The position numbers and the translations under genes are program-made. A DNA stretch of 64,000 nucleotides from a phage. Below the pieces are notes generated by a model. That model ran no database searches and was not told the DNA's origin. It was given only the letters and a program-made list of their open reading frames with translations. The stretch lies in the sequence record OZ556245.1. One strand, given 5' to 3'. Shown here piece by piece: positions 3,400-61,416 of this stretch; the first letter of the stretch is position 1, and every line of letters starts with the position of its first letter.

Positions 3400-4035
3400 T
3401 CACAGTTCAGATGCTACGGTGATTACTGCTTCAATGTTTTCTGCCGAGCGTTTAATGTCAAGATACACATTGCCGTTTTTAGCGATTTTACATGACATTC
3501 CGATATCAGTAAATTTCTGAATATGATGTTCCATCATTTTGTATCCAAAAATTCGCATATTTCCATTGTTATTAATTTCAAAATTACGAATTCCGTGAGT
3601 GCGTTTTTCTAAAATAGCAAGATAGTTACTGCGGTAAGTTTCAACCTTTTTAAGAACAAATCCATTTTCATCTAAAAGTTTTAGCATGAGGTCTTTATCT
3701 TCTTCCATATCGGAAGTAATCTCACGAGCTTTACGAGTTGCTCGTTTTTTCAGCAGTTCAGGAGCATTTTCCTGTGCATATAAAGTTGCCGCATTTGAAA
3801 TAATATCCTGAGCTTCACCTGTAATGATCAATCCATCACCAGATTTCTCCACCAGGCCTTTTTTAATCAATACCCCAATATTACTATTAACTACTGCATT
3901 ACCTAAATCTGGATGCACCTCACGAACTTCTGCGGCTGTAATGAAATCTTTCTTAGCAATGGTAATTAAAATCGCAGCAGTTTTTTCATTCAGAACATCG
4001 TTAGAAGCTTTGATGATGTAAGTTACTTTAGACAT
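3400..4035 (-). CDS. motA: Middle-transcription activator MotA
   Basis: 211 aa, MSKVTYIIKASNDVLNEKTAAILITIAKKDFITAAEVREVHPDLGNAV recognised as MotA; RBS ggag 7 nt upstream. Confidence 0.9.
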   Translation of the reverse strand: MSKVTYIIKASNDVLNEKTAAILITIAKKDFITAAEVREVHPDLGNAVVNSNIGVLIKKGLVEKSGDGLIITGEAQDIISNAATLYAQENAPELLKKRATRKAREITSDMEEDKDLMLKLLDENGFVLKKVETYRSNYLAILEKRTHGIRNFEINNNGNMRIFGYKMMEHHIQKFTDIGMSCKIAKNGNVYLDIKRSAENIEAVITVASEL

Positions 4036-4072
4036 TTTAATCTCCGTTTCAGTTCATTTATTTGATAGGTCT

Positions 4073-4101
4073 ATAGTATCATGTTTAAAGCAGAAGTAAA
4101 C
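4073..4101 (-). promoter_or_regulatory. T4-type early promoter driving motA
   Basis: Minus strand reads GTTTAC - 17 nt - TACTAT, upstream of motA. Confidence 0.6.
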
Positions 4102-4140
4102 ACTTTTTTGCACTCTTTTTCAAGAGCTCTAATAAAGTAC

Positions 4141-4368
4141 TTACTTAATGTTCAGATTACGAACTTCGATTTCGTCTTCATGGGCAAAATCAAACTGTTT
4201 GAATTCTGTGTCACCTTTAAATTTAAAAATCATTGTGAAGAAAGTCAGAACACCAGGTTTTTCTTCACGAACTCCACAGATATCATATTCAATACCATCT
4301 ACAACCAGTTTGTTAGCAGTCAGAGCATTTTTAGCTTTAACGATTTCGTTTTCGATTTTAAATTTCAT
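4141..4368 (-). CDS. Hypothetical early protein (motA.1-like)
   Basis: 75-aa ORF between two early promoters. Confidence 0.45.
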   Translation of the reverse strand: MKFKIENEIVKAKNALTANKLVVDGIEYDICGVREEKPGVLTFFTMIFKFKGDTEFKQFDFAHEDEIEVRNLNIK

Positions 4369-4417
4369 TTTTTGTATCTCCGGGTTGTTTGTTTCAGTTC
4401 ATTTATTTGATAGTTGT

Positions 4418-4447
4418 ATAGTACCATAAAGCTTTATGCTTGTAAAC
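4418..4447 (-). promoter_or_regulatory. T4-type early promoter
   Basis: Minus strand GTTTACA - 17 nt - TACTAT; lies inside the 76-bp repeat 4407-4482. Confidence 0.6.
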
Positions 4448-4464
4448 CGTTTTGTGAAAAAATT

Positions 4465-4497
4465 TTGAAATAAAAAAGGGAGAGCCTCGGCTCTCCC
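4465..4497 (-). terminator. Rho-independent terminator after the gene 52 operon
   Basis: Stem gggagag/ctctccc with 6-nt loop, followed on the minus strand by UUUUUUAUUUC. Confidence 0.6.
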
Positions 4498-4502
4498 TAA
4501 AA

Positions 4503-7431: not shown

Positions 7432-7531
7432 AGTAAGCGTTTAATACATCAATCATTAAAACGATTGGGAATATACTCAAAACTACTAGTATTATAACTA
7501 CATTCCATATAGCTTTAACAATCTTTTTCAT
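7418..7531 (-). CDS. Small membrane peptide
   Basis: ORF-track ORF trimmed to the ATG downstream of the promoter at 7559-7589; MKKIVKAIWNVVIILVVLSIFPIVLMIDVLNAYFGFM; RBS cctcc. Confidence 0.35.
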   Translation of the reverse strand: MKKIVKAIWNVVIILVVLSIFPIVLMIDVLNAYFGFM

Positions 7532-7558
7532 TTTCTGTTCCTCCGTAGTTGATAGTTG

Positions 7559-7589
7559 TATAGTACCACAAAGGAACAGTCTTGTAAAC
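7559..7589 (-). promoter_or_regulatory. T4-type early promoter
   Basis: Minus strand GTTTACA - spacer - TACTATAC; part of the recurring cassette. Confidence 0.55.
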
Positions 7590-7805
7590 AACTTTTTAAA
7601 AATATTCGTAATAAATGTGAATACCAATCACCACTGCCGAAACTTGTGCAACCCACCATGCACAAGCAATAAGTACAGAATTCAAAATTTTCATAATAAC
7701 CTCATTACAAAAGTAAATGTTAAACAAATTAATGGAATACTAACTAACCAAACAAAACACCACCACAATGAACTCATAGTTCAATCTCAACGATTTTCAT
7801 TTTAC

Positions 7806-8012
7806 TCAATAATCCGCTAAAAGATCGACGATTGTATCACGAAGACATTTATTCGCGATACGTTTAAGAGCAATTTCAGTTTCTGGAGCATTTTGAATAA
7901 TCATTGAATTCAATTCAGCTTCAGCAAACTGAAGTTCTTTAACTAATTCAGCTTTATATTTTCCTTGCCCTTTCTTAGCTTTTGCTCGTTTTAATTCAGC
8001 TGTAGTAAACAT
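7806..8012 (-). CDS. Hypothetical protein
   Basis: ORF-track start is TTG; trimmed to ATG at 8012 preceded by GGAGA. Confidence 0.4.
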   Translation of the reverse strand: MFTTAELKRAKAKKGQGKYKAELVKELQFAEAELNSMIIQNAPETEIALKRIANKCLRDTIVDLLADY

Positions 8013-8045
8013 TTTATTCTCCAAATCCGTATCAGTTGATAGTTG

Positions 8046-8076
8046 TATAATACCACAGTCCTTGTGGTATGTAAAC
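8046..8076 (-). promoter_or_regulatory. T4-type early promoter
   Basis: Minus strand GTTTAC - spacer - TATTATACA. Confidence 0.55.
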
Positions 8077-8093
8077 CATTTTGTGAAAATTTT

Positions 8094-8651
8094 TTAAATG
8101 GAAAGATACCATCCGTTGTAGTTGCTTTTTCTTACAACCTTACGAAGGTCTTCTCTATCACCGATGAACTTCGGAGTGTACTGGATGACACCTGGATGAA
8201 TTTCTTTAGTGTTGAATATAATTATACAGTCAGCGACCTGATGATTCAGAATGGGCCCTAGATTTATTCCAGAACCGTATGGATACTCTCCGCTGCATCC
8301 TGTTGTTACAGAAATCCAACGCGAGTCAGTTTGATGTGTCTTAACTTCTACGCGAAGCCCGCAGTATCTTGGATGCGCCAATACATCCCATGCGTATGTA
8401 TACGGGTCATTAACATCCTCTTGGCCTTTGTTAACATACCCGCTTAGCCAATCTGCTACAAAAAACTCTGCGTACACCGCGATACGACATCTTTCAATAA
8501 CTTCTGCTTTATCCTGGTTCGGGTTTTGTTTTAAAGAGTATCTTGCTGTATCAGCAATTTTGACCTTCATTTCACTAGTCAAGTCACTGTTCGATAGGGT
8601 AAATGTCGGAATCTGAAATAGTCTCTGTAAACCCGGATTCGTTTTCTGCAT
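8094..8651 (-). CDS. denB: Endonuclease IV DenB
   Basis: 185 aa, T4 DenB length, located downstream of rIIB. Confidence 0.7.
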   Translation of the reverse strand: MQKTNPGLQRLFQIPTFTLSNSDLTSEMKVKIADTARYSLKQNPNQDKAEVIERCRIAVYAEFFVADWLSGYVNKGQEDVNDPYTYAWDVLAHPRYCGLRVEVKTHQTDSRWISVTTGCSGEYPYGSGINLGPILNHQVADCIIIFNTKEIHPGVIQYTPKFIGDREDLRKVVRKSNYNGWYLSI

Positions 8652-8913
8652 TTAGACTTTCCTTTTTACCGCTGAGATAAGCGTTATATACTTTAAGAGT
8701 GCCGTAATAAATTCGGTCATTTTCATCTAAAGACTCACGGTCAAGTTCATCGAGTTCCTTTTTATCCATGACTATAACATCATTGCAGTAAAGAAACCCA
8801 AGTTTTTCGTGACCAAACTCAAATTTATTGCAGTACACAATATTAGCGTGATGATTTCCGTGTAGATTAATCTCTTTTATGTCGGAATCACCGATATTCA
8901 TACAATAAATCAT
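8584..8913 (-). CDS. Hypothetical protein (start/extent uncertain)
   Basis: 109-aa ORF overlapping the denB 5' end by 68 nt in another frame. Confidence 0.3.
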   Translation of the reverse strand: MIYCMNIGDSDIKEINLHGNHHANIVYCNKFEFGHEKLGFLYCNDVIVMDKKELDELDRESLDENDRIYYGTLKVYNAYLSGKKESLNAENESGFTETISDSDIYPIEQ

Positions 8914-12541: not shown

Positions 12542-12571
12542 ATTATACCACATCCTTGTGGTAAAGTAAAC
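12542..12571 (-). promoter_or_regulatory. T4-type early promoter overlapping the gene 39 stop codon
   Basis: Minus strand AGTTTAC - spacer - TATAAT (consensus -10). Confidence 0.6.
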
Positions 12572-14388
12572 TATTGGCTCATCCATTCTTTACGAAGGTC
12601 AGCATTATCTCCCATGAGCATTTCAAAAAGCTCTTTCCAGTTCTCAGGAAGTTTAACAACATCATATACTGGGTTTTGAATCATCTCACGGTATTCAGAT
12701 TTTTCCAAAGAGCCAAGTCCCTTAATATAACGGATGCTATGTTTAGGTAGAGCATCTTTGGCACTCTCATATTCAGCGACTGTATAAAACCATTCTTGTT
12801 TTTTACCGACCTGAGCGATGATTACAGGAGTTTTGACGAAGCGAATTCTTCCTTGTTCAAACAGTTCTGGCCAATTACTAAAAAATCCGAGCAGAGAAGG
12901 ATAAATGCTTCCTAGACCATCATGGTCGGCATCGGTCATAATTGCAATATTATGATAATTCAAGTTTTCAGCCTTTTCACCAAGAACTAATCCAGTGATT
13001 GCGCAAATATCAAACAGTTCTTTGTTTTTAAGCATATCAGCATATGACATACCCCAGCTGTTAAGAACTTTACCGCGTAATGGATAACCACCATGAAGTT
13101 CTTTATCACGAACATCAATAAGATATCCGATAGCCGAATCACCCTCAGTCAAGAAAAGAGTAGTGTCAGCATCTTTACCACAAAGATTCGCTTTAATATG
13201 TTTATGAACCTTAGCTTTAGAAGCCTTTTTAGCTGCTTTAGTTTCTGCTGCCTTTTCTGCAGCCAATTTACGAGCCAAAGCAGCTTCAATAATTGGCATT
13301 AAAATTGCTTCATTGTTTAAAATAGCGCGTGAAATCTTTTTAGCATCAAGCTGAATATGACTACGAATTTCACCAAATGGAGAAGTCAAACGCTCTTTAG
13401 TTTGAGAATCAAATCGCATGTTTTTCATATCACGAACAAACATGACGATAGTCAAACATTCTTTAACACGTGCTTTAGTTACATCAATTTTGAACTTGCG
13501 TTTGATTTGTGGAATAAGGTCTTCACAAATATCATCCATAACACAGTCAATGTGATGACCACCATTCTTAGTATGAATGTTATTAACGTATGTTAATTGA
13601 CGAAAACCATCCGGTGAACGACCAACCGCAATAGAACAATTTTCTTGTTCTTGAACAATAGCATGCTCATCATATTGGCGTGCGTATTTCTTAAAATTAC
13701 CCTGAACCTTTTTACCATTAAAGGTAAATTGAATATCAGGATAAACTACTGCAAGTGTCTGGAGACGATCTAGTGTAATGTCAAGATAAACTTGAGATAG
13801 CTCATTAGTTTCAAATGACATAAAATCAGGAATGAAAGTAACACGTGTTCCTTTCCATTTTCCAGGAATATCTTCCCATGATTTATTTTCCATGCCATTT
13901 GAACAACGAACTACAATATTATTTTGACCGTCGCCAGTTTCACCGATAAACATCACAGAAAAAATGTTAGTTAAACTAGAACCAACACCGTTCATACCGC
14001 CAGTGACGCGTTCTTTGTCATCACCAAAGTTACCACCTGCTTTTGGAATAGTCCAGGCAGCAACAGGACCAGGAATTTCTTCACCAGTAGGTGTTTTAAC
14101 CATCGCTTGTGGAATACCACGACCGTTATCTTCAACTGTTACTTGATTGTTTTTGATAGTAACATTAATTTTATTCGCGAATTTAAACTTAGTACGAATA
14201 CCTTCATCTACCGAGTTATCGATAATTTCATCAATAAGCTTAACAAGACCAGGTACATACTGAACACTTTCCCATTTACCAAACAGAAAGCGCTCATGCA
14301 TTTCATTAGCGGAAGAGCCAATGTACATGCCGCTACGCTTTTTGATATGTTCAATATCGCTCAGAATTTTAATTTCATTCTTAATCAT
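12571..14388 (-). CDS. 39: DNA topoisomerase II large subunit gp39 (GyrB-like ATPase plus Toprim), unsplit 39/60 form
   Basis: ORF-track start is GTG; ATG at 14388 gives 605 aa MIKNEIKIL...; motifs GMYIGS, EIIDNSVDE, Toprim LFLTEGDSA; continuous frame with no gap. Confidence 0.9.
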   Translation of the reverse strand: MIKNEIKILSDIEHIKKRSGMYIGSSANEMHERFLFGKWESVQYVPGLVKLIDEIIDNSVDEGIRTKFKFANKINVTIKNNQVTVEDNGRGIPQAMVKTPTGEEIPGPVAAWTIPKAGGNFGDDKERVTGGMNGVGSSLTNIFSVMFIGETGDGQNNIVVRCSNGMENKSWEDIPGKWKGTRVTFIPDFMSFETNELSQVYLDITLDRLQTLAVVYPDIQFTFNGKKVQGNFKKYARQYDEHAIVQEQENCSIAVGRSPDGFRQLTYVNNIHTKNGGHHIDCVMDDICEDLIPQIKRKFKIDVTKARVKECLTIVMFVRDMKNMRFDSQTKERLTSPFGEIRSHIQLDAKKISRAILNNEAILMPIIEAALARKLAAEKAAETKAAKKASKAKVHKHIKANLCGKDADTTLFLTEGDSAIGYLIDVRDKELHGGYPLRGKVLNSWGMSYADMLKNKELFDICAITGLVLGEKAENLNYHNIAIMTDADHDGLGSIYPSLLGFFSNWPELFEQGRIRFVKTPVIIAQVGKKQEWFYTVAEYESAKDALPKHSIRYIKGLGSLEKSEYREMIQNPVYDVVKLPENWKELFEMLMGDNADLRKEWMSQ

Positions 14389-14442
14389 CACTTATCCTCG
14401 TTTGGTTTCGGGAATATTATACTCCGGTAATCATAAAGCTAA

Positions 14443-14457: not shown

Positions 14458-14727
14458 TTATTTAAAACGGATAGTCGAATCCTTGAAGAATAGACCAGAA
14501 CACACGGTTCCTTCTACTTTCTGCCCAGTAGGTCCAATAGCACGAAATCCAGTATGTTGAAAATCATTTTCAGAGCAACCGAACCAGTTGTATCCAGTGA
14601 TTTCAATATTAGTAAAACCACTTGAAGACAAAACTTTGGTTGCATTATCAGCATCAGTACATCCTGCTAAAGACACTGCTAATACTAATGCTGCGATAGA
14701 ACGATTAATATATTTCATAGTTTTCAC
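14458..14727 (-). CDS. Putative lipoprotein
   Basis: Signal peptide with lipobox LAGC (MKTMKYINRSIAALVLAVSLAGCTD). Confidence 0.5.
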   Translation of the reverse strand: MKTMKYINRSIAALVLAVSLAGCTDADNATKVLSSSGFTNIEITGYNWFGCSENDFQHTGFRAIGPTGQKVEGTVCSGLFFKDSTIRFK

Positions 14728-15101
14728 TTAAATTTAATGGCTTGAAGGAGACTAATAATTCTCAAGCGACTTCTTTCATCTTTAACTGTAAATGAAAGAG
14801 GGTCACCAGATTTCATAGTGATAGTGCATTCAAAATCAAAACCTTCGGGGACTTCTTCGAATAGGTCAAATTCTTCATCATATATTAGAACATTACTCTG
14901 AAAACTGTGAAGAATTTTTCCATCATTTCCAGATGCTGTACTAATCATTGTAACATTATGGCCTTTCATATCTTCAACGATAAATTCGCTTGTAGATATT
15001 ACGGCATTAATAGAACCATTCCTATAAATAGAAGAAAGTAGATATTTCTTTTCTTCACCTTCGCGAACACGATATTTCTTACCGATTTTAAACATAATCA
15101 C
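14724..15101 (-). CDS. Hypothetical protein
   Basis: 125-aa ORF. Confidence 0.4.
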   Translation of the reverse strand: MIMFKIGKKYRVREGEEKKYLLSSIYRNGSINAVISTSEFIVEDMKGHNVTMISTASGNDGKILHSFQSNVLIYDEEFDLFEEVPEGFDFECTITMKSGDPLSFTVKDERSRLRIISLLQAIKFK

Positions 15102-15911: not shown

Positions 15912-16082
15912 TACAATTTCCTCATTAATTGAACATTGGAGCGATGCGTTTCAGAAGAGTAGCAGCACCTTTGGCAAATTTTCCATTTTATTCTCCAAGT
16001 TATTTTCTGTATCAGTAGTTGATATTGATATAGTACCATAATCAACTACTGATGTATATAGTTTTATGAAAAATTTTAAACT

Positions 16083-16650: not shown

Positions 16651-17190
16651 TTAATTCAAAATAGCTACCACCGCACTACGAGGTACTACACTAAAATCAC
16701 CTGCATGAACAACGTTCAGAAGTTCAACACCATCTTCAATCCACTGGTCTGTTACCCAACCACAGACCGAAACAAATGGGGTCTTGATAGCTACAGCACA
16801 AGTCAAAAGGTCAGTAGGATCGCATTCTTGAAAGAGGATAAGCTCTGCTTCAAAGACTATAGTTTTAATTACTTCATCATTATCTAAGCGTTGTGCTCGA
16901 ATCACATAAGCTTTATTCTTATCATGCCAATTACTTTTTGAAAAACTTTTAACCACAAACTCGCCTTCACCAAAAACACTAGTCAATGCTTTATAACCCA
17001 AACTTAGTTCAGTAGTTTTAATTTCAGTTTCAACCAGTTTGTAGGTTTTGCCGATTTCAATAGCGGTAGTCATAGTAGGTTCCTTAATTTCTAGTGGTTT
17101 AACAGGGCATACATAAGTGCTTACAACATCAAAATCAATCAGTTTAGCTACCGGATTTGGTGTGTATTCAGGATTATAATTAAATTTCAT
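16651..17190 (-). CDS. Paralog of the MotB-like protein
   Basis: 179 aa; C-terminal block VCGWVTDQWIEDGVELLNVVHAG aligns with CAYITDQWVEDGVKLYNVVFLG of the adjacent gene. Confidence 0.45.
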   Translation of the reverse strand: MKFNYNPEYTPNPVAKLIDFDVVSTYVCPVKPLEIKEPTMTTAIEIGKTYKLVETEIKTTELSLGYKALTSVFGEGEFVVKSFSKSNWHDKNKAYVIRAQRLDNDEVIKTIVFEAELILFQECDPTDLLTCAVAIKTPFVSVCGWVTDQWIEDGVELLNVVHAGDFSVVPRSAVVAILN

Positions 17191-17192
17191 AA

Positions 17193-17693
17193 TTATCTCA
17201 TTTCAATAAAATCTATAAGTTCAGCATGGGATTTACGGAACATTACTTGATGTCCGCCAATGATAACTTGGTCATCTGGCACTTCGTATACAGCAAGATA
17301 AAATCCTTTAGAAGATAATTCTTCACGCTCTTCTCGTGTGAACCATCTCATCATATCATATTCACTAGCGAAAGCAAAATGATAAAGAGCTATAAACCAT
17401 CCTGGAATATGATATTCTACTCCAACATAATCTTTCTTGAACTTAGTATTAATTACTATATTAGCGTTTTTAACTAATAGTTTATCTTCATGTGGTACAG
17501 GAATTCTTTTATTATCATCGCTATGATGCATAAAATTAGGTCTACTATAACCTACACGTAATAGCCACTCTTCGCTCCATGAATCTATTATACTCCTGTA
17601 CGGCGTTATTTGAACACAAAGATTTCGACGTATTGTTATAGCATCTTCATAATCAAGAATACTAAACGATGATTCAACACGATAAATTTTCAT
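17193..17693 (-). CDS. Hypothetical protein
   Basis: Trimmed to the ATG (MKIYRVESS...) downstream of the promoter at 17719-17750; RBS cctc. Confidence 0.4.
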   Translation of the reverse strand: MKIYRVESSFSILDYEDAITIRRNLCVQITPYRSIIDSWSEEWLLRVGYSRPNFMHHSDDNKRIPVPHEDKLLVKNANIVINTKFKKDYVGVEYHIPGWFIALYHFAFASEYDMMRWFTREEREELSSKGFYLAVYEVPDDQVIIGGHQVMFRKSHAELIDFIEMR

Positions 17694-17718
17694 TTTATTA
17701 TCCTCAGTAGCTATGGTG

Positions 17719-17750
17719 TTATAATACCACAACTAACCGAGGAAGTAAAC
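17719..17750 (-). promoter_or_regulatory. T4-type early promoter
   Basis: Minus strand GTTTAC - spacer - TATTATAA. Confidence 0.6.
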
Positions 17751-18935: not shown

Positions 18936-19167
18936 ATTTAATTAGTAATTTACAGACACTTTCATCTAGCGTAATTACCGTATCTGTATTACTGTGATAT
19001 GATTGTTTTTCAATTCGTTTAATTGCTAGTATAGTATCACTTATAAGATTAAGCTTATAAAGGAGCTCAGCTCCTGTTACCATAACACTGAGGTTATCTT
19101 GCTTATCAGTGTGCTTCTTTATACCATCTATTAGACGATTTAAATATTTTGAATTGATGTTAATCAT
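18907..19167 (-). CDS. Hypothetical protein
   Basis: 86-aa ORF. Confidence 0.35.
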   Translation of the reverse strand: MININSKYLNRLIDGIKKHTDKQDNLSVMVTGAELLYKLNLISDTILAIKRIEKQSYHSNTDTVITLDESVCKLLIKFEEAIRGNN

Positions 19168-19173
19168 ATATCC

Positions 19174-25365: not shown

Positions 25366-25575
25366 TTAAATTACATGACTATTTATAATAAATTCTTGCG
25401 GAACGTTAAAATACCCAATTTTAGTTAATATAACAACATCACCGTTAATAATTACCGGAGAATAATCGGCTGGAGCATTAAACTTCCAATGAGCTCTAAT
25501 ATTATATCCATCAGAACCAAATGCTCGACTAGCCGGTTTCCCGGCTTTTTGCCATGCATAAAAATCAAATTTCAT
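25366..25575 (-). CDS. Hypothetical protein
   Basis: 69-aa ORF in the slot where T4 carries segF. Confidence 0.4.
   Translation of the reverse strand: MKFDFYAWQKAGKPASRAFGSDGYNIRAHWKFNAPADYSPVIINGDVVILTKIGYFNVPQEFIINSHVI
25380..25387 (-). promoter_or_regulatory. Late promoter TATAAATA upstream of soc
   Basis: Exact TATAAATA on the minus strand about 30 nt upstream of the soc ATG. Confidence 0.5.
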
Positions 25576-25772
25576 TTTGAATGCTCTATAATTAATTTTA
25601 AGGCTTCTTCATGCACCTTACCTAATTGTATATGTCCAGTTTTAATTGTGTAAGCTTTGTGGAGCTGATTAGATAAGAGCTCACATACGAGCTCTTTGTC
25701 ATAATTTTTAAATAGCTGGTCAATACGTTTCTTGTGGGCTTTCTTAAGCTGGCGTTTATTTAAACGAGCCAT
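25572..25772 (-). CDS. Hypothetical basic protein
   Basis: 66-aa ORF. Confidence 0.4.
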   Translation of the reverse strand: MARLNKRQLKKAHKKRIDQLFKNYDKELVCELLSNQLHKAYTIKTGHIQLGKVHEEALKLIIEHSK

Positions 25773-26290
25773 TAATAACCTCGGTCTTGACGAGCGAAGT
25801 TTTCAGCATTTTTCAGATAATAAAGTTTAAAGATTTCTTCAGCCGTAAGACCGAGACCTTGGAACATGTTCAGAACGAAATGAAGAATATCAATCATTTC
25901 GAATTTAATTTCCAACTGGTCTTGTGGAGACAAATCAGTAATCAGAGTTTCACGTCGTTCACCATGCTGAGCTTTCCAAGGCTTCCATACAGCAGATGCA
26001 TCTTTTTCACCATTGCTCATACCACCAAGAGAAGTCAATAGTTCGCGGAATTCATCATCAATATAATCTTTCTGATTACGCAGCCAATCAACAACTTCAC
26101 CCGCAGTAGCCAAATCATCAGGATGACGGTTATATTCAGGTTTATCTTTAGCTAAACGAACCTGCAGAGATTTCTGCATATCAAGCATAACCTGCAGCGG
26201 GTCTTTTTCATCACCGAGAATATCCCAGTATTCATTTTGAGCTTTATCAGCGCCTTCAATCAGTTGTGAACATTCATTAAAGTATGCCAT
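25772..26290 (-). CDS. 56: dCTP pyrophosphatase gp56 (MazG-like)
   Basis: ORF trimmed to the internal ATG (MAYFNECSQLIEGADKAQNEYWDILGDE...) giving about 172 aa, T4 gp56 size. Confidence 0.8.
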   Translation of the reverse strand: MAYFNECSQLIEGADKAQNEYWDILGDEKDPLQVMLDMQKSLQVRLAKDKPEYNRHPDDLATAGEVVDWLRNQKDYIDDEFRELLTSLGGMSNGEKDASAVWKPWKAQHGERRETLITDLSPQDQLEIKFEMIDILHFVLNMFQGLGLTAEEIFKLYYLKNAENFARQDRGY

Positions 26291-27755: not shown

Positions 27756-28112
27756 TTAACCTCTATTCATAAAAGCATTAAAAATTTGGTCATCAATCGA
27801 TGGAACAGCAACCTTTTCGGCATCATTTAGCAAATCATTAATTTCATCAGATAGCATAACGCATGTACCTTTATTTCCTGTAATTGTTACTGCACAATTA
27901 CGAACGTTTTCTTTATCAAATTTTAGGTTAATATTTTCGTAGTGAAAATCCTTTAATGCCGAATATATTTTTAAAATGAAATTGTCTTTTACTGCAATAA
28001 ACCCAACTTCACTATTAAAACGTGGTTCATGGAAACTGTAATAAACCTTTTCATCTATAAAATCGTATGAAATTTTTTCCATTTTTAAATATGAAAATTC
28101 AGAACTGTACAT
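27756..28112 (-). CDS. Hypothetical protein (61.2-like position)
   Basis: 118-aa ORF between sp and 61. Confidence 0.45.
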   Translation of the reverse strand: MYSSEFSYLKMEKISYDFIDEKVYYSFHEPRFNSEVGFIAVKDNFILKIYSALKDFHYENINLKFDKENVRNCAVTITGNKGTCVMLSDEINDLLNDAEKVAVPSIDDQIFNAFMNRG

Positions 28113-28124
28113 ACTAACCTCTAA

Positions 28125-30776: not shown

Positions 30777-31932
30777 TTAACTGATCTAGGTCAGTTTCTA
30801 AATCAGCTGCTGATTTACTTTTGCTTTCTGGAGATTTAAATTTTTCAACCTTTGAGTTAATCAATTCATCAACTTCAGCTTCAACAATTTCATTACTATC
30901 AATAGCACCTAACTGATAAGCACGTTTAATAGCGTCTCGGAATGGTTGATGCTTAAATAAAGGACCCCAGAATGTAGTGCAGTTGGTATCTTTTGCACGC
31001 CAAGATTTTTCTTCTCGAATCATCTCGCCAGTTTCTTCGTCAAGAAATTCACGAGCATACCAGCCATTTTTAGGTTTTACCACAAATCCTAATTCAAGAG
31101 CCATATCTAACAATCCAGAATAAGGATCGATACCACCGTCAAATTTAACATCAATAAAGAATTTACTTTTTTCTTTAACGGTACGAGATTTTTCTACATT
31201 TAGAACAAATTGATACCCCTGAAGATCAGAACCATCTTTAATCTGGCGCTTACCGATAATGAATACAGTATCAGCCGAATACATTACGCCTGTACCACCT
31301 GTCATCACGGTTTTACTGAACATTTCAATTGTTTCAATTGTATGGTTAACCGCAACGCATGGAATGTTTTTAATACTAAAATAAGGAGTAACAATACGGA
31401 ATAATGACTTCAGTGATTTAGCACGAGTCATATCTGCCACAGATTTTTCATTCAAGGCATCTTCCGTTTCTTTCTTAGAAGCCATATTACCGATTGAGTC
31501 GATGAATACAATAACTTTTTCACCACGCTCAATAGCTTCAAGCTGATTCACCATATCAATTTTCAGCTGTTCAACTGACTGAATTGGTGTATGAATTACT
31601 CGTTCCGGGTCAACTCCCATGGATCGCAAATAAGCTGGAGTAATACCAAATTCGCTATCATAAAATAGACATACCGCGTCAGGATATTTGTTCAAATACG
31701 CCGCAACCATAGTCAAAGACATATTTGATTTAAAGTGTTTAGAAGGACCTGCAAAAATGGTTAAACCAGACTGCATTCCACCATCAATCGCACCTGAAAT
31801 AGCGATATTAAGCATTGGGATTTTTGTACGGATTACATCCTTTTCATTAAAGAATTTAGATGTAGTCAGTTCAGCAGTCATTTTAGAAGTGGAAGCTTTA
31901 ATCAAACGGGATTTTAAATCTGCAATAGACAT
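30751..31932 (-). CDS. uvsX: UvsX recombinase (RecA-like)
   Basis: 393 aa; P-loop GPSKHFKS; synteny. Confidence 0.9.
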   Translation of the reverse strand: MSIADLKSRLIKASTSKMTAELTTSKFFNEKDVIRTKIPMLNIAISGAIDGGMQSGLTIFAGPSKHFKSNMSLTMVAAYLNKYPDAVCLFYDSEFGITPAYLRSMGVDPERVIHTPIQSVEQLKIDMVNQLEAIERGEKVIVFIDSIGNMASKKETEDALNEKSVADMTRAKSLKSLFRIVTPYFSIKNIPCVAVNHTIETIEMFSKTVMTGGTGVMYSADTVFIIGKRQIKDGSDLQGYQFVLNVEKSRTVKEKSKFFIDVKFDGGIDPYSGLLDMALELGFVVKPKNGWYAREFLDEETGEMIREEKSWRAKDTNCTTFWGPLFKHQPFRDAIKRAYQLGAIDSNEIVEAEVDELINSKVEKFKSPESKSKSAADLETDLDQLSDMEEFNE

Positions 31933-32009
31933 TCATTTTTTCCATAGGCATCATTATATTTTCCTCACTGGTTAAAGATAGAGTAATTATAACACAATAA
32001 ATTTAGGCA

Positions 32010-32852
32010 TTAATCAACTGCTATTGGATGAATAGCATTAAACTTATGAAACGCTTCTGATTTTTCTTTGCGCGAAACACACATGCGAAGAACCTTTAAT
32101 GGCTCGTCTTCTTCACCCAACGATTTTCTCTTTTCAATATTCGATGTTTTCCAACGAGCTTGCTCTGGAAACTCTCTATTGATTTGCTCAAGAGCTCTAT
32201 TATGTTTTGAATTACTACGAATTGAACTACATCCGCCAGGAGCCTGTGCTTTTCCAGACACAACTAGATATTTGAACAGGGCCAAATGCGGATAACCTTG
32301 ATTAATTAAATTGAGAAATGCATACATATCTTCGCATAAATCAATTTTTCCATACCCAATTTGTTCTGTCGTGAGTTTTCCGAGGTCATACCAAGTATTC
32401 GTGAATCCATATGAATTTTCACGATAATTACCCCAAGATGAAGTAATTTTAAAAATTGGTAAACGAGCATGACCATGATAATACCCACAATCCATGGCAT
32501 CTTCAACGTATTGAATCAATTCATAGAACTGTTCACGAGTTAACTGATTAATTTTATCTACGCAGCGACGATCATCTTTCTTTCGCATTGAACTCATACG
32601 AATAGTAGTATCATCATCAATCATCCAAATTCGTTGACCTGCATACATATCAGTAATTGCTTTACGAGTACCAGCAATTCCATTAACATCATCAGGAATA
32701 GTTATAATTTTGGCTCTAGACCCGTAAGCGTCATAATAAGCTTTTTCTTCGTGTTCACGTACTACAATATGCGGTTCATAATCAGATGGAAACATATCAA
32801 GGGCAGAAACTGCCCCTACGCGTTGATAGCTTGGAATTACGAATTGAATCAT
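32010..32852 (-). CDS. Glycosyltransferase in the beta-gt locus (candidate T2/T6-type HMC glucosyl modifier)
   Basis: 280 aa from ATG at 32852; IPSYQR and MIDDD motifs suggest a GT-A fold; occupies the slot between uvsX and 42 where T4 has the 351-aa beta-gt; coupled ATGA to gene 42. Confidence 0.5.
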   Translation of the reverse strand: MIQFVIPSYQRVGAVSALDMFPSDYEPHIVVREHEEKAYYDAYGSRAKIITIPDDVNGIAGTRKAITDMYAGQRIWMIDDDTTIRMSSMRKKDDRRCVDKINQLTREQFYELIQYVEDAMDCGYYHGHARLPIFKITSSWGNYRENSYGFTNTWYDLGKLTTEQIGYGKIDLCEDMYAFLNLINQGYPHLALFKYLVVSGKAQAPGGCSSIRSNSKHNRALEQINREFPEQARWKTSNIEKRKSLGEEDEPLKVLRMCVSRKEKSEAFHKFNAIHPIAVD

Positions 32853-33589
32853 TTCCACTCACCGTTATAATCTTTTTTCGCAATATGAGTTTCGCCAGTT
32901 TTCCACCAATGGTCAACCAAATAAAAATGACGGGAATACACATGAAGGCTTCCGACATTCCATATAATGGAACCTGCTTTATACTGACGAGTTGAATCAC
33001 CTGCATTCAAATCAGATACTAATTTATCTAGTACGTATTTTTGCCATGCATAATCATTACGGAATCCGAAGACCACGTCATTTGAACGCATGCTTACTAC
33101 TGCATTGACTTTCTTATCACGAATCAGGTACTGTACTGTATTCGTACACATGAAATCTGACATACCGTCTTTATTGTAGTCAAACTGCATGGATGGACGA
33201 GTATAAATCATGATACCACGTCGAGAATCAGGATTTTGACCAAGTTCAGCTAAACACATATCATACTGGGCATAGTTATCTTCTGACCAGATGGCCCAAC
33301 CATAATTCGAGTTAATTTCGCCTTTAGAAGATGCTACCTGCTGCCAAATCTTCGGTGTTTCACCCGGAATATCTTTAACAAACAAACTTTTAGATTTATA
33401 CCATTCAAGTTCATGTTGAATGTATTCATCATTAAGAGCGCCAAAAATAAACGGTTCATCTGCTACAAATGATGCACCAATAATTTCAATAGTTTTAACA
33501 CCAGTTTTATCAACTACGAAATCTTTTTCCTTTAATGCAAGCCCCAAATGAAGACGGATTTCTTCAACTGTCATAGAGTCACTAATCAT
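32849..33589 (-). CDS. 42: dCMP hydroxymethylase gp42
   Basis: 246 aa, MISDSMTVEEIRLHLGLALKEKDFVVDKTG recognised as gp42. Confidence 0.9.
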   Translation of the reverse strand: MISDSMTVEEIRLHLGLALKEKDFVVDKTGVKTIEIIGASFVADEPFIFGALNDEYIQHELEWYKSKSLFVKDIPGETPKIWQQVASSKGEINSNYGWAIWSEDNYAQYDMCLAELGQNPDSRRGIMIYTRPSMQFDYNKDGMSDFMCTNTVQYLIRDKKVNAVVSMRSNDVVFGFRNDYAWQKYVLDKLVSDLNAGDSTRQYKAGSIIWNVGSLHVYSRHFYLVDHWWKTGETHIAKKDYNGEWK

Positions 33590-34382: not shown

Positions 34383-34392
34383 AATAATTTCC

Positions 34393-34650
34393 TCAAATAC
34401 AAGTAGTAATTACTCCAGTAGTGCTTACACAGGTATTACCTAATTGAACACCAAGCGTTCCATTAGTATTCATATGAAGATTATCATCAATTTTTGTTGA
34501 TACTTTACCATTCATGTGAATAACAGTATTAGATTCAATCACATTCTGAGTGTCATTTTCAATATCAATAAATGGAACAGCTGCTAATGCAACTAGAACA
34601 ACTGCTAATGCAACTAAACACGCTGCTAAACAACCATAAACAATTTTCAT
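34393..34650 (-). CDS. Small secreted/membrane protein
   Basis: Trimmed to the ATG downstream of the promoter; MKIVYGCLAACLVALAVVLVALAAVPF... Confidence 0.4.
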   Translation of the reverse strand: MKIVYGCLAACLVALAVVLVALAAVPFIDIENDTQNVIESNTVIHMNGKVSTKIDDNLHMNTNGTLGVQLGNTCVSTTGVITTCI

Positions 34651-34683
34651 TTTATTCTCCAAATCCGTATCAGTTGATAGTTG

Positions 34684-34714
34684 TATAGTACCACGGAAGA
34701 ACAGGGATGTAAAT
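34684..34714 (-). promoter_or_regulatory. T4-type early promoter (weaker -35 ATTTAC)
   Basis: Cassette shared with 8046-8076 and 61337-61366. Confidence 0.45.
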
Positions 34715-34797
34715 AGTTTTGTGAAAAAATTTTTAATGAATTTACAGGACCTAGAATCATCTATTTTTATTAAGTATAGATTTATATTACTTGTATG

Positions 34798-34818
34798 AAA
34801 AAGGGACCCGGAGGTCCC
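34798..34818 (-). terminator. Rho-independent terminator after gene 43
   Basis: gggacc-cgga-ggtccc followed by U5 on the minus strand. Confidence 0.6.
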
Positions 34819-34831
34819 TAGATTTATTCTA

Positions 34832-49500: not shown

Positions 49501-49971
49501 TTAATCATGTTTCCACACCCCATCGGTATTTGACCAAAGTCGCTGATTATCTGATCCTCGCCACAGCTTTTTGGTCGGAAGATTTTTCTCATACTTCCCA
49601 TCAATAATAACATCAACATATTTAAGCATTTCTAGTTGTTTAATATCCTCAAACTTATATCCTGTCCACAACCAAATGCTTTTATTTGGATAAAGATTTT
49701 TTACTGTTTGAACAATGCAATGAATAACATCTCGGTTATCAGGATAGAGAGGGTCTCCTCCAGTTATAGTCAATCCTTCTATATAATCATTATTCAAACA
49801 TTCAATTAATTGTTCCAGTGTTTCACCAGTGAATGGAACGCCATTTCTAGCATTCCATGTTGATTTATTATAACACCCTTCGCATTTATGCAAACAACCT
49901 GTAACGAAAAGAACGACCCTGCATCCAGGGCCATTCACAAAATCACAAGGATAAAATCTATCATAATTCAT
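49501..49971 (-). CDS. nrdG: Anaerobic ribonucleotide reductase activating protein NrdG (radical SAM)
   Basis: 156 aa; cysteine cluster CDFVNGPGCR...GCLHKCEGC; overlaps nrdD stop. Confidence 0.85.
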   Translation of the reverse strand: MNYDRFYPCDFVNGPGCRVVLFVTGCLHKCEGCYNKSTWNARNGVPFTGETLEQLIECLNNDYIEGLTITGGDPLYPDNRDVIHCIVQTVKNLYPNKSIWLWTGYKFEDIKQLEMLKYVDVIIDGKYEKNLPTKKLWRGSDNQRLWSNTDGVWKHD

Positions 49972-51785
49972 CGGTGTTTAACCCTATGCATGATTTCTTT
50001 ATTTTTTCCAAGATTAAATCCGCGTTCATTCGGATTTCCCAAATAACCACAAGTTCTTCTTATTGTGTTCATCTTTTTAGGATCAGTTTCTCCACAAATA
50101 GAACAAACAAACCCGTTTTCAGTAGGAGTCATTTCATGGGTACTTCCGCATGTAAAACATTTATCTACTGGCATATTAACACCAAAATAATCTAAATGTT
50201 GTGCAGCATAATCCCATACAGCCTCAAGACCTTTTAGGTTATTTTTCATATCAGGAAGTTCAACATAAGAAATGTGACCACCTGTCGCAATGAAATGATA
50301 TGGGGCTTCGCGAGAAATCTTTTCAAACGGAGTAATATTTTCTTCTACTGAAACATGGAAACTATTAGTGTACCAGCCTTTATCAGTAACATCCTTTACA
50401 CTTCCATATTTCTCAGTATCAAGTTTACAGAAGCGATAGCACAGGTTTTCAGCAGGAGTAGAATACAAGCTAAAAGCAAAACCGGTTCTTTCAGTCCACT
50501 GCTTAAGACGAGCATTCATTTTAGTTAAAATTTCCTGTCCAATATCACGACCGACAAGAATATTCAATTCGTGAATACCAATGTATCCTAAGGACACTGA
50601 ACTTCTACCGTTTTTAAATAACTCAATTATGTCGTCATCAGGTTTAAGACGAACCCCAAATGCACCTTCTTGGTAAAGAATAGGAGCAACAGTCGCTTTA
50701 ACTCCTTTTAAGGAACTAATTCTACACATCAAAGCTTCAAAACACAAATCCATTCGTTCATTGAACAATTCAGCAAATTTCTGTTCATTGAACTGTGTTC
50801 CAATATAAGAATCTAACGCAATGCGAGGAAGATTCAGTGTTACAACGCCAAGATTATTACGTCCATCAAGAATTTCATTACCAGTCGAATCTTTCCATAC
50901 GCTCAAGAAACTACGGCAACCCATTGGAGAAACAGGAATAGATGAGCCGGTGATAACTTTATTGTTCTTAGCTGAAATAATATCAGGATACATTCTTTTG
51001 CTTGCACACTCTAAAGCAAGCTGCTTAATATCATAGTTCGGATCGTCCTTATAAAGATTAACACCTTCTTCAACGAACATAACAAGTTTAGGGAAAATAG
51101 GAGTTATCCCATCACGGCCAAGGCCTTTAATACGATTTTTCAGAATTGCTTTCTGAATCATTCGTTCAGTCCAGTCAGTTCCCGTACCAAATGTAATTGT
51201 TACAAAAGGCGTTTGTCCGTTTGAACTAAAGAGAGTATTTACTTCATATTCATAAGCTTGGAATGCATCGTATACGTCTTTTTCTGTTTTAGATTGGGCA
51301 TAATTCAATGCATCGGCGATTTGCCATTTTTCTGCATCCTCAATATGTTTTGCATAGGTGCGTTTAACATAAGGAGAAAGTACTTTATCTACATTCGCAA
51401 AAGTCGTTCCGCCATATTGATGAGAAGCAACCTGCGCAGTAATTTGTGCCATAATTGCAGTAGCAACGCCGATTGATTTAGGAGTTTCAATCTGCGCATT
51501 ACCGAGCTTAAATCCGTTCTCAAGCATTCCTTTTAAATCTACTAAACAGCAATTAGTAAATGGAAGAGCAGGGGAATAATCAATATCGTGGAAATGGATA
51601 ATTCCGCTTTCATGCGCTTTCATAATAAAAGACGGGACCATATTTTTGGCAATGTGTTTAGACACAATACCAGCCATAAGGTCCCGTTGAGTTGGAAAAA
51701 CACGAGAATCTTTATTAGCATTCTCGTTTAAAAGGTCTTTATTAGTTTTATGAATCAATCCTTCAATTTCTTTTTCAATTGTCAT
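49968..51785 (-). CDS. nrdD: Anaerobic ribonucleotide reductase NrdD, intron-less
   Basis: 605 aa continuous; glycyl-radical motif RRTCGYLGN; C-terminal zinc ribbon CFTCGS...CSICGE. Confidence 0.9.
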   Translation of the reverse strand: MTIEKEIEGLIHKTNKDLLNENANKDSRVFPTQRDLMAGIVSKHIAKNMVPSFIMKAHESGIIHFHDIDYSPALPFTNCCLVDLKGMLENGFKLGNAQIETPKSIGVATAIMAQITAQVASHQYGGTTFANVDKVLSPYVKRTYAKHIEDAEKWQIADALNYAQSKTEKDVYDAFQAYEYEVNTLFSSNGQTPFVTITFGTGTDWTERMIQKAILKNRIKGLGRDGITPIFPKLVMFVEEGVNLYKDDPNYDIKQLALECASKRMYPDIISAKNNKVITGSSIPVSPMGCRSFLSVWKDSTGNEILDGRNNLGVVTLNLPRIALDSYIGTQFNEQKFAELFNERMDLCFEALMCRISSLKGVKATVAPILYQEGAFGVRLKPDDDIIELFKNGRSSVSLGYIGIHELNILVGRDIGQEILTKMNARLKQWTERTGFAFSLYSTPAENLCYRFCKLDTEKYGSVKDVTDKGWYTNSFHVSVEENITPFEKISREAPYHFIATGGHISYVELPDMKNNLKGLEAVWDYAAQHLDYFGVNMPVDKCFTCGSTHEMTPTENGFVCSICGETDPKKMNTIRRTCGYLGNPNERGFNLGKNKEIMHRVKHR

Positions 51786-53226: not shown

Positions 53227-53236
53227 TTTTCACCAA

Positions 53237-53446
53237 TTAATTTCGCAATTTATTAAGTTCTTCATAATCAATCCAGGATTCTAGTCCTGATGGCAAATCA
53301 GATTCAATTTCCCAAAGAAGTTCTTCAATTTTCTGAAGACGATCTAATTCTTCAGCAGGAATAGTAACCATTGACGGAGTTCTTGATACGCTAATATCGT
53401 AAATCATATTTACCCCAGTTTGACCATACAATCGCCATATTTCCAT
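53237..53446 (-). CDS. Hypothetical protein
   Basis: 69-aa ORF. Confidence 0.35.
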   Translation of the reverse strand: MEIWRLYGQTGVNMIYDISVSRTPSMVTIPAEELDRLQKIEELLWEIESDLPSGLESWIDYEELNKLRN

Positions 53447-53625
53447 TTAGAAATAGACTTTTCACCATTAGAATAATAAACTTCAAGTTTAGCACGATTA
53501 TTTTTAATTTGAATAACCTTTGCTGTCATCAAAGTTCCATACCCATAATAAACTGCAACCTCATCACCTACATATACCGCGCTTCCGCGGTAGTCATGGA
53601 TATAATCAGTTCCTTCGAGCATCAT
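53410..53625 (-). CDS. Hypothetical protein
   Basis: 71-aa ORF. Confidence 0.35.
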   Translation of the reverse strand: MMLEGTDYIHDYRGSAVYVGDEVAVYYGYGTLMTAKVIQIKNNRAKLEVYYSNGEKSISKWKYGDCMVKLG

Positions 53626-58862: not shown

Positions 58863-59390
58863 TTATGCGAGTACCGTCTTTAACCGTTCTTCAAACTTCC
58901 GAAGAGTATTTTGGCGTTCAGCTCTTTGCTTTTTGTAAGTTTCAATACGCTCTGAAATGAGAGAGTATCGTTCATTTACTGATTCTTTCATAAAATCAGG
59001 AATTTCACGAGAAGCTTTAATCTCGTCAAATTTATCAATAACAGCCTGCTCTTCAGCAATTAAGTTATCATACATTAAAATATCTTTCTTGATGAACTCA
59101 ATATCTTCTTGAGTTACACGAGATAATTTAGATGCTTTATCCTTTTTGTACTGTTCGTTAGTATCACGAGACCAGTGTAATGTACGATTTTTATTCGTAT
59201 TTTTGTAAATTTCTACAATACCGATCTCATCGATAATAACGATCCAATTCCAACGGGATTTGTAAATTTGTCCTCCATCAACAGTGATTTCACCTCCAAT
59301 TGAGATGTCATTAAAGAACTTGCTTTGCGCTTCAGATTTAAATTTACCATCGTTGTAATTTACCAAGTTGAAAATATCTTTAGCGTTCAT
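58863..59390 (-). CDS. Hypothetical protein with C-terminal coiled coil
   Basis: 175 aa; first gene after the early promoter at 59419-59448. Confidence 0.4.
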   Translation of the reverse strand: MNAKDIFNLVNYNDGKFKSEAQSKFFNDISIGGEITVDGGQIYKSRWNWIVIIDEIGIVEIYKNTNKNRTLHWSRDTNEQYKKDKASKLSRVTQEDIEFIKKDILMYDNLIAEEQAVIDKFDEIKASREIPDFMKESVNERYSLISERIETYKKQRAERQNTLRKFEERLKTVLA

Positions 59391-59418
59391 TTTGTGTTCC
59401 TCCGTAGTTGATAGTTGT

Positions 59419-59448
59419 ATAGTACCACAGAGGAACAGTCTTGTAAAC
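59419..59448 (-). promoter_or_regulatory. T4-type early promoter
   Basis: Minus strand GTTTACA - spacer - TACTATAC; cassette shared with 7559-7589. Confidence 0.55.
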
Positions 59449-59450
59449 CA

Positions 59451-59765
59451 CTAAAAGAAACTTCTTTCACATTTTTTTCCACTGAACCATGCACTTACCG
59501 CTTTCTTGGTCTCAGGAGCAGTGTTATCCATAAACCATTCAAAGGCAGCCTTTTTATGATTCTGGAGGGCTTCTCGGGCTTTAATCTGCTCACGGTCTAT
59601 TAACACTAACATATGAGCCTTTCTTGTCACCATGGGCTTCTTATGATTTTTTGAATACTCCCAGTCATTTGTCCATCGCATTGTCGTTGCGAACTGAAAT
59701 ACTGCTTCTTTAATTTTAGTTTCGTAAATTTCACGAGCCTTTGAGTATAACATCACTACCTCCAT
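59451..59765 (-). CDS. Hypothetical protein
   Basis: 104-aa ORF. Confidence 0.35.
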   Translation of the reverse strand: MEVVMLYSKAREIYETKIKEAVFQFATTMRWTNDWEYSKNHKKPMVTRKAHMLVLIDREQIKAREALQNHKKAAFEWFMDNTAPETKKAVSAWFSGKKCERSFF

Positions 59766-60823: not shown

Positions 60824-60859
60824 TTTATTCTCCAATTTCACATTTGTTTTGATAGGGTA

Positions 60860-60889
60860 ATAGTATCACACTACTACCCTACTGTAAAC
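60860..60889 (-). promoter_or_regulatory. T4-type early promoter
   Basis: Minus strand GTTTACA - spacer - TACTAT. Confidence 0.5.
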
Positions 60890-60892
60890 AAT

Positions 60893-61156
60893 TTATTTTA
60901 ATGTTTGCCAAATTTTTACTGCTTCGCGACGAGATACTTCTACAGCTCCAAGTTCTACGGCTTTTTGGCGTCGGCGAGCATGTAAGTCATAATGTTTAAT
61001 GCGTTTATCTTGAAACCAAGAACGTTTCATTCCTATTGCTTCTGCCATTTTATGAAGCTCTTCAATATCTCCATCAGTGAACATATGACAATTTTTAGTT
61101 GGATGACCGCGAAGTTTCCATCCATGATTCATTAAAACATCTACGTAAACTGTCAT
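60893..61156 (-). CDS. Hypothetical protein (nrdC.11-like)
   Basis: 87-aa ORF. Confidence 0.4.
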   Translation of the reverse strand: MTVYVDVLMNHGWKLRGHPTKNCHMFTDGDIEELHKMAEAIGMKRSWFQDKRIKHYDLHARRRQKAVELGAVEVSRREAVKIWQTLK

Positions 61157-61302
61157 TGATTCTGCTCCAAATATGTTTCTATAATTTTCTGAGCGAGATA
61201 AACTGCGTTATCTTCAGTTGCATCTTCTAAGAAATTTTCAAAATAAACTGAAATTTCTTCTGTGTCAATCAACTTTTTTACTTCAATTAACGTAGTTTTC
61301 AT
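61153..61302 (-). CDS. Small acidic protein
   Basis: 49 codons MKTTLIEVKKLIDTEEISVYFENFLEDATEDNAVYLAQK..., coupled ATGA to the next gene. Confidence 0.35.
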   Translation of the reverse strand: MKTTLIEVKKLIDTEEISVYFENFLEDATEDNAVYLAQKIIETYLEQNQ

Positions 61303-61336
61303 TTTATTCCCCAAATCCGTATCAGTTGATAGTTGT

Positions 61337-61366
61337 ATAGTACCATAAAGCTTTATGCTTGTAAAC
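61337..61366 (-). promoter_or_regulatory. T4-type early promoter inside the 76-bp repeat
   Basis: Identical to 4418-4447. Confidence 0.55.
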
Positions 61367-61390
61367 CGTTTTGTGAAAAAATTTTGAAAT

Positions 61391-61414: not shown

Positions 61415-61416
61415 TA

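Follow-up and report, generated by a model that had tools for sequence, protein, structure and literature searches.

Why should unrelated small genes of one phage begin with the same promoter, leader and start codon? The question is raised by a module found twice within a short distance near the ndd gene, and again elsewhere in the window, the stretch of 64,000 nucleotides of sequence record OZ556245.1 that was analysed. A preliminary description had regarded it as a portable expression cassette spread by recombination. The repeats are very probably T4-type immediate-early cassettes of the class known as promoter-early stem-loops (PeSLs), serving as homology for the turnover of small genes. 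Such cassettes have been described before in this group of phages, the ndd locus itself included.

Genomic context and published background

Judged by its sequence, the window is part of a T4-like phage (Tequatrovirus). The 2 kb around the locus are 94-99% identical to several hundred Tequatrovirus genomes, among them T4, T2, RB14 and ime09. By BLASTN the whole window is collinear with T4, running from 160.2 kb to the end of the T4 genome and on to 57.8 kb. The gene order is t, asiA, motA, ndd, denB, rIIB, rIIA, 39, dexA, dda, 41, uvsX, 43, 55 and nrdC.x. The motif is read on the reverse complement because all the genes concerned are on the minus strand, as are all the cassettes and inserts described below.

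The PeSL was introduced by Arbiol et al. (2010, PMC2839356) and treated further by Comeau et al. (2014, PMC4122927). It was defined in RB49 and phi1, where promoter and terminator activity were measured and mini-circles were shown (PMC2839356). In the T4/PST pair, PeSLs have the consensus TTTACW-N17-TAYWAT, and the ndd.4/ndd.5 locus depicted in Fig. 6A of that study is the locus of the present finding (PMC4122927). No promoter features are annotated in the T4 GenBank and RefSeq records, nothing usable on these promoters was found in the T4 transcription-start-site literature, and an Rfam scan of the whole window matched no family.

Recurrence of the module

The five full copies of the preliminary description all lie on the minus strand where it had placed them, at 8076-8010 (cassette A), 7589-7529 (B), 34714-34648 (C), 59448-59388 (D) and 61366-61300 (E). 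The range given for D had stopped at 59402, short of its Shine-Dalgarno sequence (SD) and ATG. The list was also incomplete, as a strong sixth copy at 4447-4366 (F) had been overlooked. Two sites thought to carry the leader alone do not stand alone: the sequence at 60835-60821 follows its own promoter, of another subtype (cassette H, 60889-60860), and that at 15998-15984 follows a diverged full cassette (I). The hexamer GTTTAC is found in the full copies except C, which has ATTTAC. The reported spacer of 17 nt holds when counted from the sigma-70 hexamer TTTACA; counted from GTTTAC, it is 18 nt.

Chance recurrence is excluded. The core GGTAYTATACAACTATCAACT has seven matches with up to three mismatches, against 0.00 expected from 100 shuffles, and the common SD-ATG segment TTGGAGAATAAAATG has six against 0.74 expected. 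The alignment extends well past the -35 and -10 hexamers, the longest exact common runs being 76 nt between E and F, 40 nt between A and C, and 35 nt for both B/D and C/E. TTTACA-17-TAYTAT with TG before the -10 box is present in all copies, as is TGGTAYTATACAACTATCAAC. The UP element AAAATTTTTTCACAAAA is common to A, C, E and F. In the six core copies A+T is 77-87% over the 30 nt that precede the -35 box, as in an A/T-rich UP element. A, C and E have the whole leader in common, with one G change in E.

The genes that follow include the 68-aa ORF, ndd.4, an 85-aa membrane ORF, nrdC.8, a 49-aa ORF, a 75-aa ORF, motA and nrdC.10. The cassettes lie in the ndd-denB, motA, imm and nrdC.x regions, and the downstream ORFs, of 37-175 aa, are mostly of unknown function. 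That one transcription and translation initiation module is common to unrelated genes is borne out by the first products, among which no BLASTP pair has E < 0.04. Paralogous duplication of a gene together with its promoter was ruled out because the downstream proteins are unrelated.

The same cassettes are held by T4 at the collinear, orthologous positions 27080, 53943, 55384, 163673, 166807 and 167086, with further copies at 70696 and 146875, and the TTTACA-17-TAYTAT promoters fit the T4 early type. T4 early promoters are known as 'uber' sigma-70 promoters, which match the UP, -35, TGn and -10 consensus and have additional consensus regions (Hinton 2010, PMC2988021). All of these elements are found here, and the copies have orthologous promoter-like counterparts at matching places on the T4 map. 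The promoter concept differs in that it leaves out the common 5' UTR, SD and ATG and the role in gene turnover.

Some likeness in UP, -35, TGn and -10 is to be expected from selection for a strong promoter alone (PMC2988021). It could be argued further that the copies are alike only through selection towards one polymerase and ribosome optimum, and that recombination has no role in their turnover. The consensus features of T4 early promoters would agree with such a view, but the exact runs of 35-76 nt also cover spacers and 5' UTR, for which no polymerase or ribosome contact is known. Constraint as the whole explanation is unlikely, also in the light of the mosaic cassettes and bordered inserts described below.

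Anatomy of the cassettes

As read from the sequence, the composite of A/T-rich region, early promoter, SD and downstream start codon is present. Each cassette consists of an UP element, a -35 hexamer GTTTAC(A), a 17-nt spacer, TGn, a -10 box TAYTAT, a leader of about 30 nt, a GGAG-type SD in an A-rich context and an ATG. Most cassettes also have a stem-loop, either a terminator that precedes the promoter or a hairpin, which lies in the spacer or surrounds the -10 box.

Cassette A (8010-8106) contains an A/T-rich UP element, the -35 GTTTAC (8076-8071), TGn with the -10 box TATTAT (8052-8047), the leader ACAACTATCAACTGATACGGATTTGGAGAATAAA and the ATG (8012-8010) of the 68-aa ORF. The palindrome ATACCACA-AGGAC-TGTGGTAT is contained in its 18-nt spacer, and the T4 orthologue of the cassette is the promoter at 167086, which precedes ndd.6. 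Cassette B (7529-7619; -35 at 7589-7584, -10 TACTAT at 7565-7560, ATG at 7531-7529) has the leader ACAACTATCAACTACGGAGGAACAGAAA and is orthologous to T4 166807. Its first gene is the ndd.4 homologue of 37 aa, and its spacer CTGTTCCTTTGTGGT is complementary to ACTACGGAGGAACAG in the leader.

Cassette C (34648-34819) begins with a terminator-like stem-loop at 34819-34802 and an UP element, followed by ATTTAC (34714-34709), the -10 box (34690-34685), the same leader as A and the ATG (34650-34648). Its 85-aa ORF is absent from T4; the cassette itself has its T4 orthologue in the promoter at 27080, ahead of imm.1. Cassette D (59388-59480; -35 at 59448-59443, -10 at 59424-59419, ATG at 59390-59388) has a small A/T-rich stem-loop, GAAAGAAGTTTCTTT, and the leader SD GGAGGAACAC, and its spacer and SD can form a 14-bp helix. 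It precedes the nrdC.8 homologue (175 aa) and is orthologous to T4 53943.

Cassette E (61300-61415) has a terminator at 61415-61396, an UP element, the -35 at 61366-61361, the -10 box at 61342-61337, the G-changed form of the leader of A, and the ATG of the 49-aa ORF at 61302-61300. It is orthologous to T4 55384, where nrdC.10 comes directly after. Cassette F (4366-4498) has its terminator at 4498-4477, -35 at 4447-4442, -10 box at 4423-4418 and ATG at 4368-4366. Over 76 nt its UP element and promoter equal those of E, but the leader differs; its 75-aa ORF is absent from T4. Cassette G (4033-4101, ATG at 4035-4033) carries the motA-proximal promoter and has a 23-nt leader segment, CTATCAAATAAATGAACTGAAAC, in common with F.

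The remaining cassettes deviate further. Cassette H (60821-60889) joins a promoter of another subtype to the common SD-ATG and would drive nrdC.10, the inverted repeat TAGGGTA / TACCCTA flanking its -10 box. Cassette I (15984-16062) has a degenerate -35, TATATAC, a -10 box at 16035-16030, surrounded by a perfect 13-bp inverted repeat (ATCAGTAGTTGAT / ATCAACTACTGAT), and the common SD-ATG with the ATG at 15986. Conserved in T4, it is followed by an ORF of 11 codons that precedes cef.

A second-type promoter occurs as a near-identical pair, as had been reported, at 12571-12542 and 56471-56442; in each, GTTTAC starts on the final G of the TAG stop codon of the preceding gene. The first promoter contains the spacer hairpin CCACA-AGGA-TGTGG and overlaps the stop of the fused gene 39/60 ORF. 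Its twin overlaps that of a 340-aa ORF and is orthologous to T4 50973.

From T4 biology, we infer that the promoters are active in this genome. Host sigma-70 RNA polymerase would fire them right after infection, with a predicted start about 7 nt past the -10 box, and the common leader would allow efficient and strong initiation of translation. The leader GGAGAAUAAAAUG, in which GGAG is followed by an A-rich tract, appears to fit the published RegB/S1 target; RegB cleaves at GGAG with an A-rich 3' context (PMC3014915).

Mosaic cassettes

Two of the cassettes are composites of others. Cassette F consists of the terminator, UP element and promoter of E joined to the leader of G; in cassette H, a promoter of the T4 frd.2 type is followed by the SD and ATG of E. 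The spacers fall into discrete common types that are paired with differing leaders, which counts against constraint as the only cause of the likeness.

The cassettes of ndd.4 and nrdC.8 were compared in 13 sequences from several phages. They contain three variable blocks, namely the spacer variant, a discriminator of either ACAACTATC or TACCCTATC, and an SD end of AACAG or AACAC. Most combinations are seen at both loci, a pattern that would be expected of ectopic exchange. A pattern scan of IMG/VR with the B/D leader covered nine closely similar loci, in which reassortment of the variant blocks is visible. It is probable, then, that cassettes at separate loci swap segments.

Inserts relative to T4

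Between the window and T4 there are 19 indels or replacements of at least 100 bp, seven of which involve homing-endonuclease genes or an intron. Four of the 19 are gene-sized inserts that start at a cassette leader or ATG.

The insert at 4082-4403 contains the 75-aa ORF and a second promoter, is bordered by the 23-nt direct repeat formed by the leader segment common to F and G, and is found in 142 records. That at about 7806-8009 places the 68-aa ORF, equivalent to RB32ORF266c of RB14, between the 10-nt repeats GAGAATAAAATG and GAGTAAAATG. It occurs in 118 phage records, whereas the 2 kb around it occur in 512. RB14 carries one more gene inserted at this TAAAATGAAA junction ahead of ndd.6, so that a single site is seen in three configurations, in T4, in this phage and in RB14. 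The third insert, 34383-34642, brings the 85-aa predicted membrane ORF between cassette C and imm.1, with the 8-nt junction repeat ATGAAAAT (319 records). The fourth, 60836-61293, comprises the 49-aa ORF, an 87-aa ORF annotated as DUF4031 in other phage records, and promoter H, and is flanked by the 21-nt sequence TTGGrGAATAAAATGAAAACT. It is found in 155 records, compared with 621 that have the nrdC.10 flank, and also occurs in Enterobacter Karamvirus phages at 90% identity. All four inserts are thus polymorphic across the phage collection, with 118-319 records compared to 512-621 for the flanks.

A breakpoint was taken to coincide with a cassette when it lay within 12 nt of the cassette ATG. 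Four of 19 gives P of about 9e-6 against a null of random positions, but P of about 0.3, which is not significant, against a null of gene boundaries (18 cassettes among some 123 gene starts). When the endonuclease events are left out, four of 12 gives P of about 0.09 under the latter null. As a stand-alone proof the coincidence was over-optimistic, being significant against random positions only, and the lack of significant enrichment under the gene-boundary null is a point in favour of pure constraint. The real evidence is therefore the contrast in repeat length, together with the mosaics and the published experiments. Junction repeats measure 23, 10, 8 and 21 nt at the four cassette inserts and 1-6 nt at four inserts elsewhere, a comparison of four events with four. 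That the inserts are bordered by repeats of 8-23 nt is difficult to reconcile with constraint alone, as are the PeSL-to-PeSL crossovers sequenced in RB49 and phi1, which fall in the interval from the -10 box to the SD or ATG (PMC2839356).

Precise insertion at a conserved motif is also what would be seen if the cassettes were attachment sites of a dedicated site-specific recombinase, and an analogy with integrons has been published (PMC2839356). The junction repeats, however, vary in length and have no fixed place between the discriminator and the first codons, which is what exchange driven by homology would produce, and no integrase-type gene is known in T4-like genomes according to the same study. 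An integron-like mobile element is therefore highly improbable.

Under the PeSL explanation, homologous recombination of the phage would use the repeated cassettes as portable homology, because 35-76 nt of each cassette recurs around the genome. Small genes could therefore be inserted, deleted and replaced precisely at the leader, SD and ATG. In T4, short patches of homology suffice for homologous recombination (PMC2839356). The spread by recombination put forward in the preliminary description is supported by the mosaics, the repeat-flanked inserts and the reassorted blocks; the direction of spread and the actual crossovers in this genome are what we infer from these patterns. The idea was right, yet it is not new, as it corresponds to the published PeSL model (PMC2839356, PMC4122927).

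Comparison with known systems

The cassettes resemble PeSLs in almost every respect. The composite of A/T-rich region, early promoter, stem-loop, SD and start codon is the same, and the T4/PST consensus fits every copy. Like PeSLs, the cassettes stand upstream of small non-essential ORFs, in hyperplastic regions. They may also be like PeSLs in adjoining indels between close relatives, and the crossover interval, as deduced here from sequence, would likewise run from the -10 box to the SD or ATG. There is no essential difference. The stem-loops of T4/PST lie just upstream of the promoter (PMC4122927), whereas several of those described here lie in the spacer or bracket the -10 box, positions already catalogued for the PeSLs of RB49 and phi1 (PMC2839356).

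Lambdoid morons and integron cassettes are similar in that they, too, are small accessory genes that move together with expression signals of their own or insert behind them. Regulatory sequences are not believed to be the vehicle by which morons move, whereas here the promoter-leader itself is the homology. Integrons have attC sites and an integrase, in contrast to the present cassettes, for which no dedicated recombinase is known.

Stem-loops and translation

Stem-loops are not uniform among the cassettes. GC-rich, terminator-like stem-loops stand upstream of the promoter in C, E and F, only three of the six core copies, which counts against the PeSL assignment. Spacer hairpins are found in A and in the 12571/56471 pair. 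In B, D, H and I the hairpin surrounds the -10 box (z between -4.5 and -5.4). Taken alone, A, E and F fold no better than shuffled sequences.

In RNA that reads through cassette B from upstream, a 15-bp helix of -20.5 kcal/mol is predicted (z = -4.6), and in that of D a 14-bp helix of -20.2 kcal/mol (z = -5.2); neither value was reached in 200 shuffles. The promoter spacer supplies the 5' arm and the leader the 3' arm, with GGAGG inside the helix and the -10 box in the loop. The SD also lies within a predicted helix of the long transcript at T4 ndd.4, the range over B, D and this gene being -17 to -20.5 kcal/mol, with 0/200 shuffles. In B and D RNA beginning at the predicted own start, the SD is unpaired. 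As an intrinsic terminator the B/D hairpin was rejected, since AAAAUGAAAAAG comes next, without a U tract.

These folds point to a tentative addition to the PeSL explanation. The inverted repeat around the -10 box may be a conserved and selected part of the early cassettes of the Tevenvirinae, working as a translational insulator. Read-through RNA would fold and hide the ribosome-binding site (RBS), and RNA from the cassette's own promoter, which does not include the 5' arm, would be translated. Translation of each small gene would then be confined to transcripts begun at its own promoter. We regard this as possible but doubtful.

Beyond B and D, complementarity between spacer and leader is found among 25 T4 early promoters, with a mean duplex of -10.9 kcal/mol against -7.3 kcal/mol when permuted. 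None of 2000 permutations reaches the mean, and ten of the 25 promoters have z < -2. The orthologous promoters of nrdC.8 and nrdC.10 keep a strong -10 hairpin with quite different arm sequences in the relatives sampled (two Mosigvirus phages, a Dhakavirus, a Karamvirus and an unclassified phage), which argues that structure rather than sequence is selected. In the Dhakavirus QL01 the hairpin again covers the SD. A precedent exists in the RBS-sequestering hairpins of T4 e, soc, 49 and I-TevI (reviewed in PMC3014915). As in these genes, the predicted 5' arm of B and D is upstream of the start of the proximal promoter and the 3' arm lies over the SD. The difference is that the proximal promoter there is late and the control temporal, whereas here it is of the early sigma-70 type.

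Several observations weigh against occlusion of the RBS. The SD is within the helix at some promoters only; at others the 3' arm corresponds to the -10 box itself or to roughly the first ten bases of the transcript. The changes among close relatives are all one-sided, C/U opposite G, and one breaks a terminal pair. The authors of the PeSL model assign the stem-loops to termination or attenuation, and terminator-like activity has been shown for one of them (PMC2839356). A role of the inverted repeat at the DNA level is also conceivable. No reading of the PeSL stem-loop as occluding the RBS of T4 early genes was found in the PeSL and T4 early-promoter literature examined.

Implications

The analysis re-derives a published idea from raw sequence, namely that repeated promoter-leader cassettes express accessory genes and supply the homology by which these are shuffled. 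With the three configurations at a single junction, it offers a clean worked example and adds no new principle. The hairpin around the -10 box is the only part that could matter further. If the hairpin does hide the RBS in read-through RNA, this would explain the independence of densely packed early cassettes, and it might also bear on the shut-off of early gene expression.

Differences from T4 and gene-sized inserts

The phage is T4-like with most of the T4 homing endonucleases missing. Differences from T4 lie at window positions 26330/26351, 12906/12971, 25388-25808, 45451/45476, 49951-49972, 51247/51250 and 62432-63411. The genes mobB and mobC and the I-TevII intron of T4 are all absent, as is 60.1/mobA, and the places of the segF- and mobD-bearing stretches are occupied by different sequence. 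The dam methyltransferase region (T4 16826-17724) is also lacking. Where 60.1/mobA is missing, a 606-aa ORF (12571-14391) extends across T4 gene 39 together with the 3′ portion of gene 60. Four stretches do not align to T4: 31921-32866, 53234-53620, 16764-17204 and 27801-28123, the T4 counterparts of which are segA/beta-glucosyltransferase, 49.3, motB.1 and 61.2. A 49.2/49.3 exchange has also been mentioned for phage PST (PMC4122927).

Compared with T4, the window has two more gene-sized inserts that fall precisely on gene boundaries, one at 14720-15092 after GGGTGATTATG and the other at 18943-19173 inside an overlapping ATGA, with junction repeats of only 1-4 nt. No early promoter is found at either insert; start-codon-precise insertion is therefore not confined to the cassettes, the repeated units of early promoter, leader, Shine-Dalgarno sequence (SD) and ATG. 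On the minus strand, a 109-aa ORF (8584-8913), known in RB14 as RB32ORF268c, overlaps the 5′ end of denB; 207 bp of this ORF (8666-8872) are missing in T4, with a junction repeat of 6 nt.

Leader ORFs and promoter hairpins

An 8-codon mini-ORF, MKIVEIEL (7800-7774, minus strand), is located between the 68-aa ORF and ndd.6, and its TGA stop overlaps the ATG of ndd.6 (ATGA). The T4 version of this mini-ORF starts at the cassette's own ATG. The product appears to be a leader peptide for translational coupling, retained through gene insertions upstream. A second short ORF, of 11 codons (MENLPKVLLLF), follows cassette I, the copy upstream of cef (16062-15951 with the ORF, minus strand), and is present in T4 too with several amino-acid changes.

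The -35 box of cassette I is degenerate (TATATAC), and its -10 box is bracketed by a perfect 13-bp inverted repeat (-20.2 kcal/mol, z = -5.4). Across the T4 genome (loci L001 and L003-L006), the -35/-10 spacer is significantly complementary to the leader in 10 of 25 early promoters. These include the regB, dexA, ipII, ndd.4 and nrdC.8 promoters, at which the SD lies within the 3′, leader-side arm. The hairpin is retained in orthologous promoters of other Tevenvirinae genera (loci L017-L021), with arms of differing sequence.

A module common to Karamvirus

The module of a 49-aa ORF and a DUF4031 protein shares 90% identity between this Tequatrovirus and Karamvirus phages, and is found in Enterobacter phage PG7 at 1499-1908 of locus L017. 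This identity, together with the far fewer Enterobacter phage records matched by the adjoining nrdC.10, suggests that the two genes moved recently between genera.
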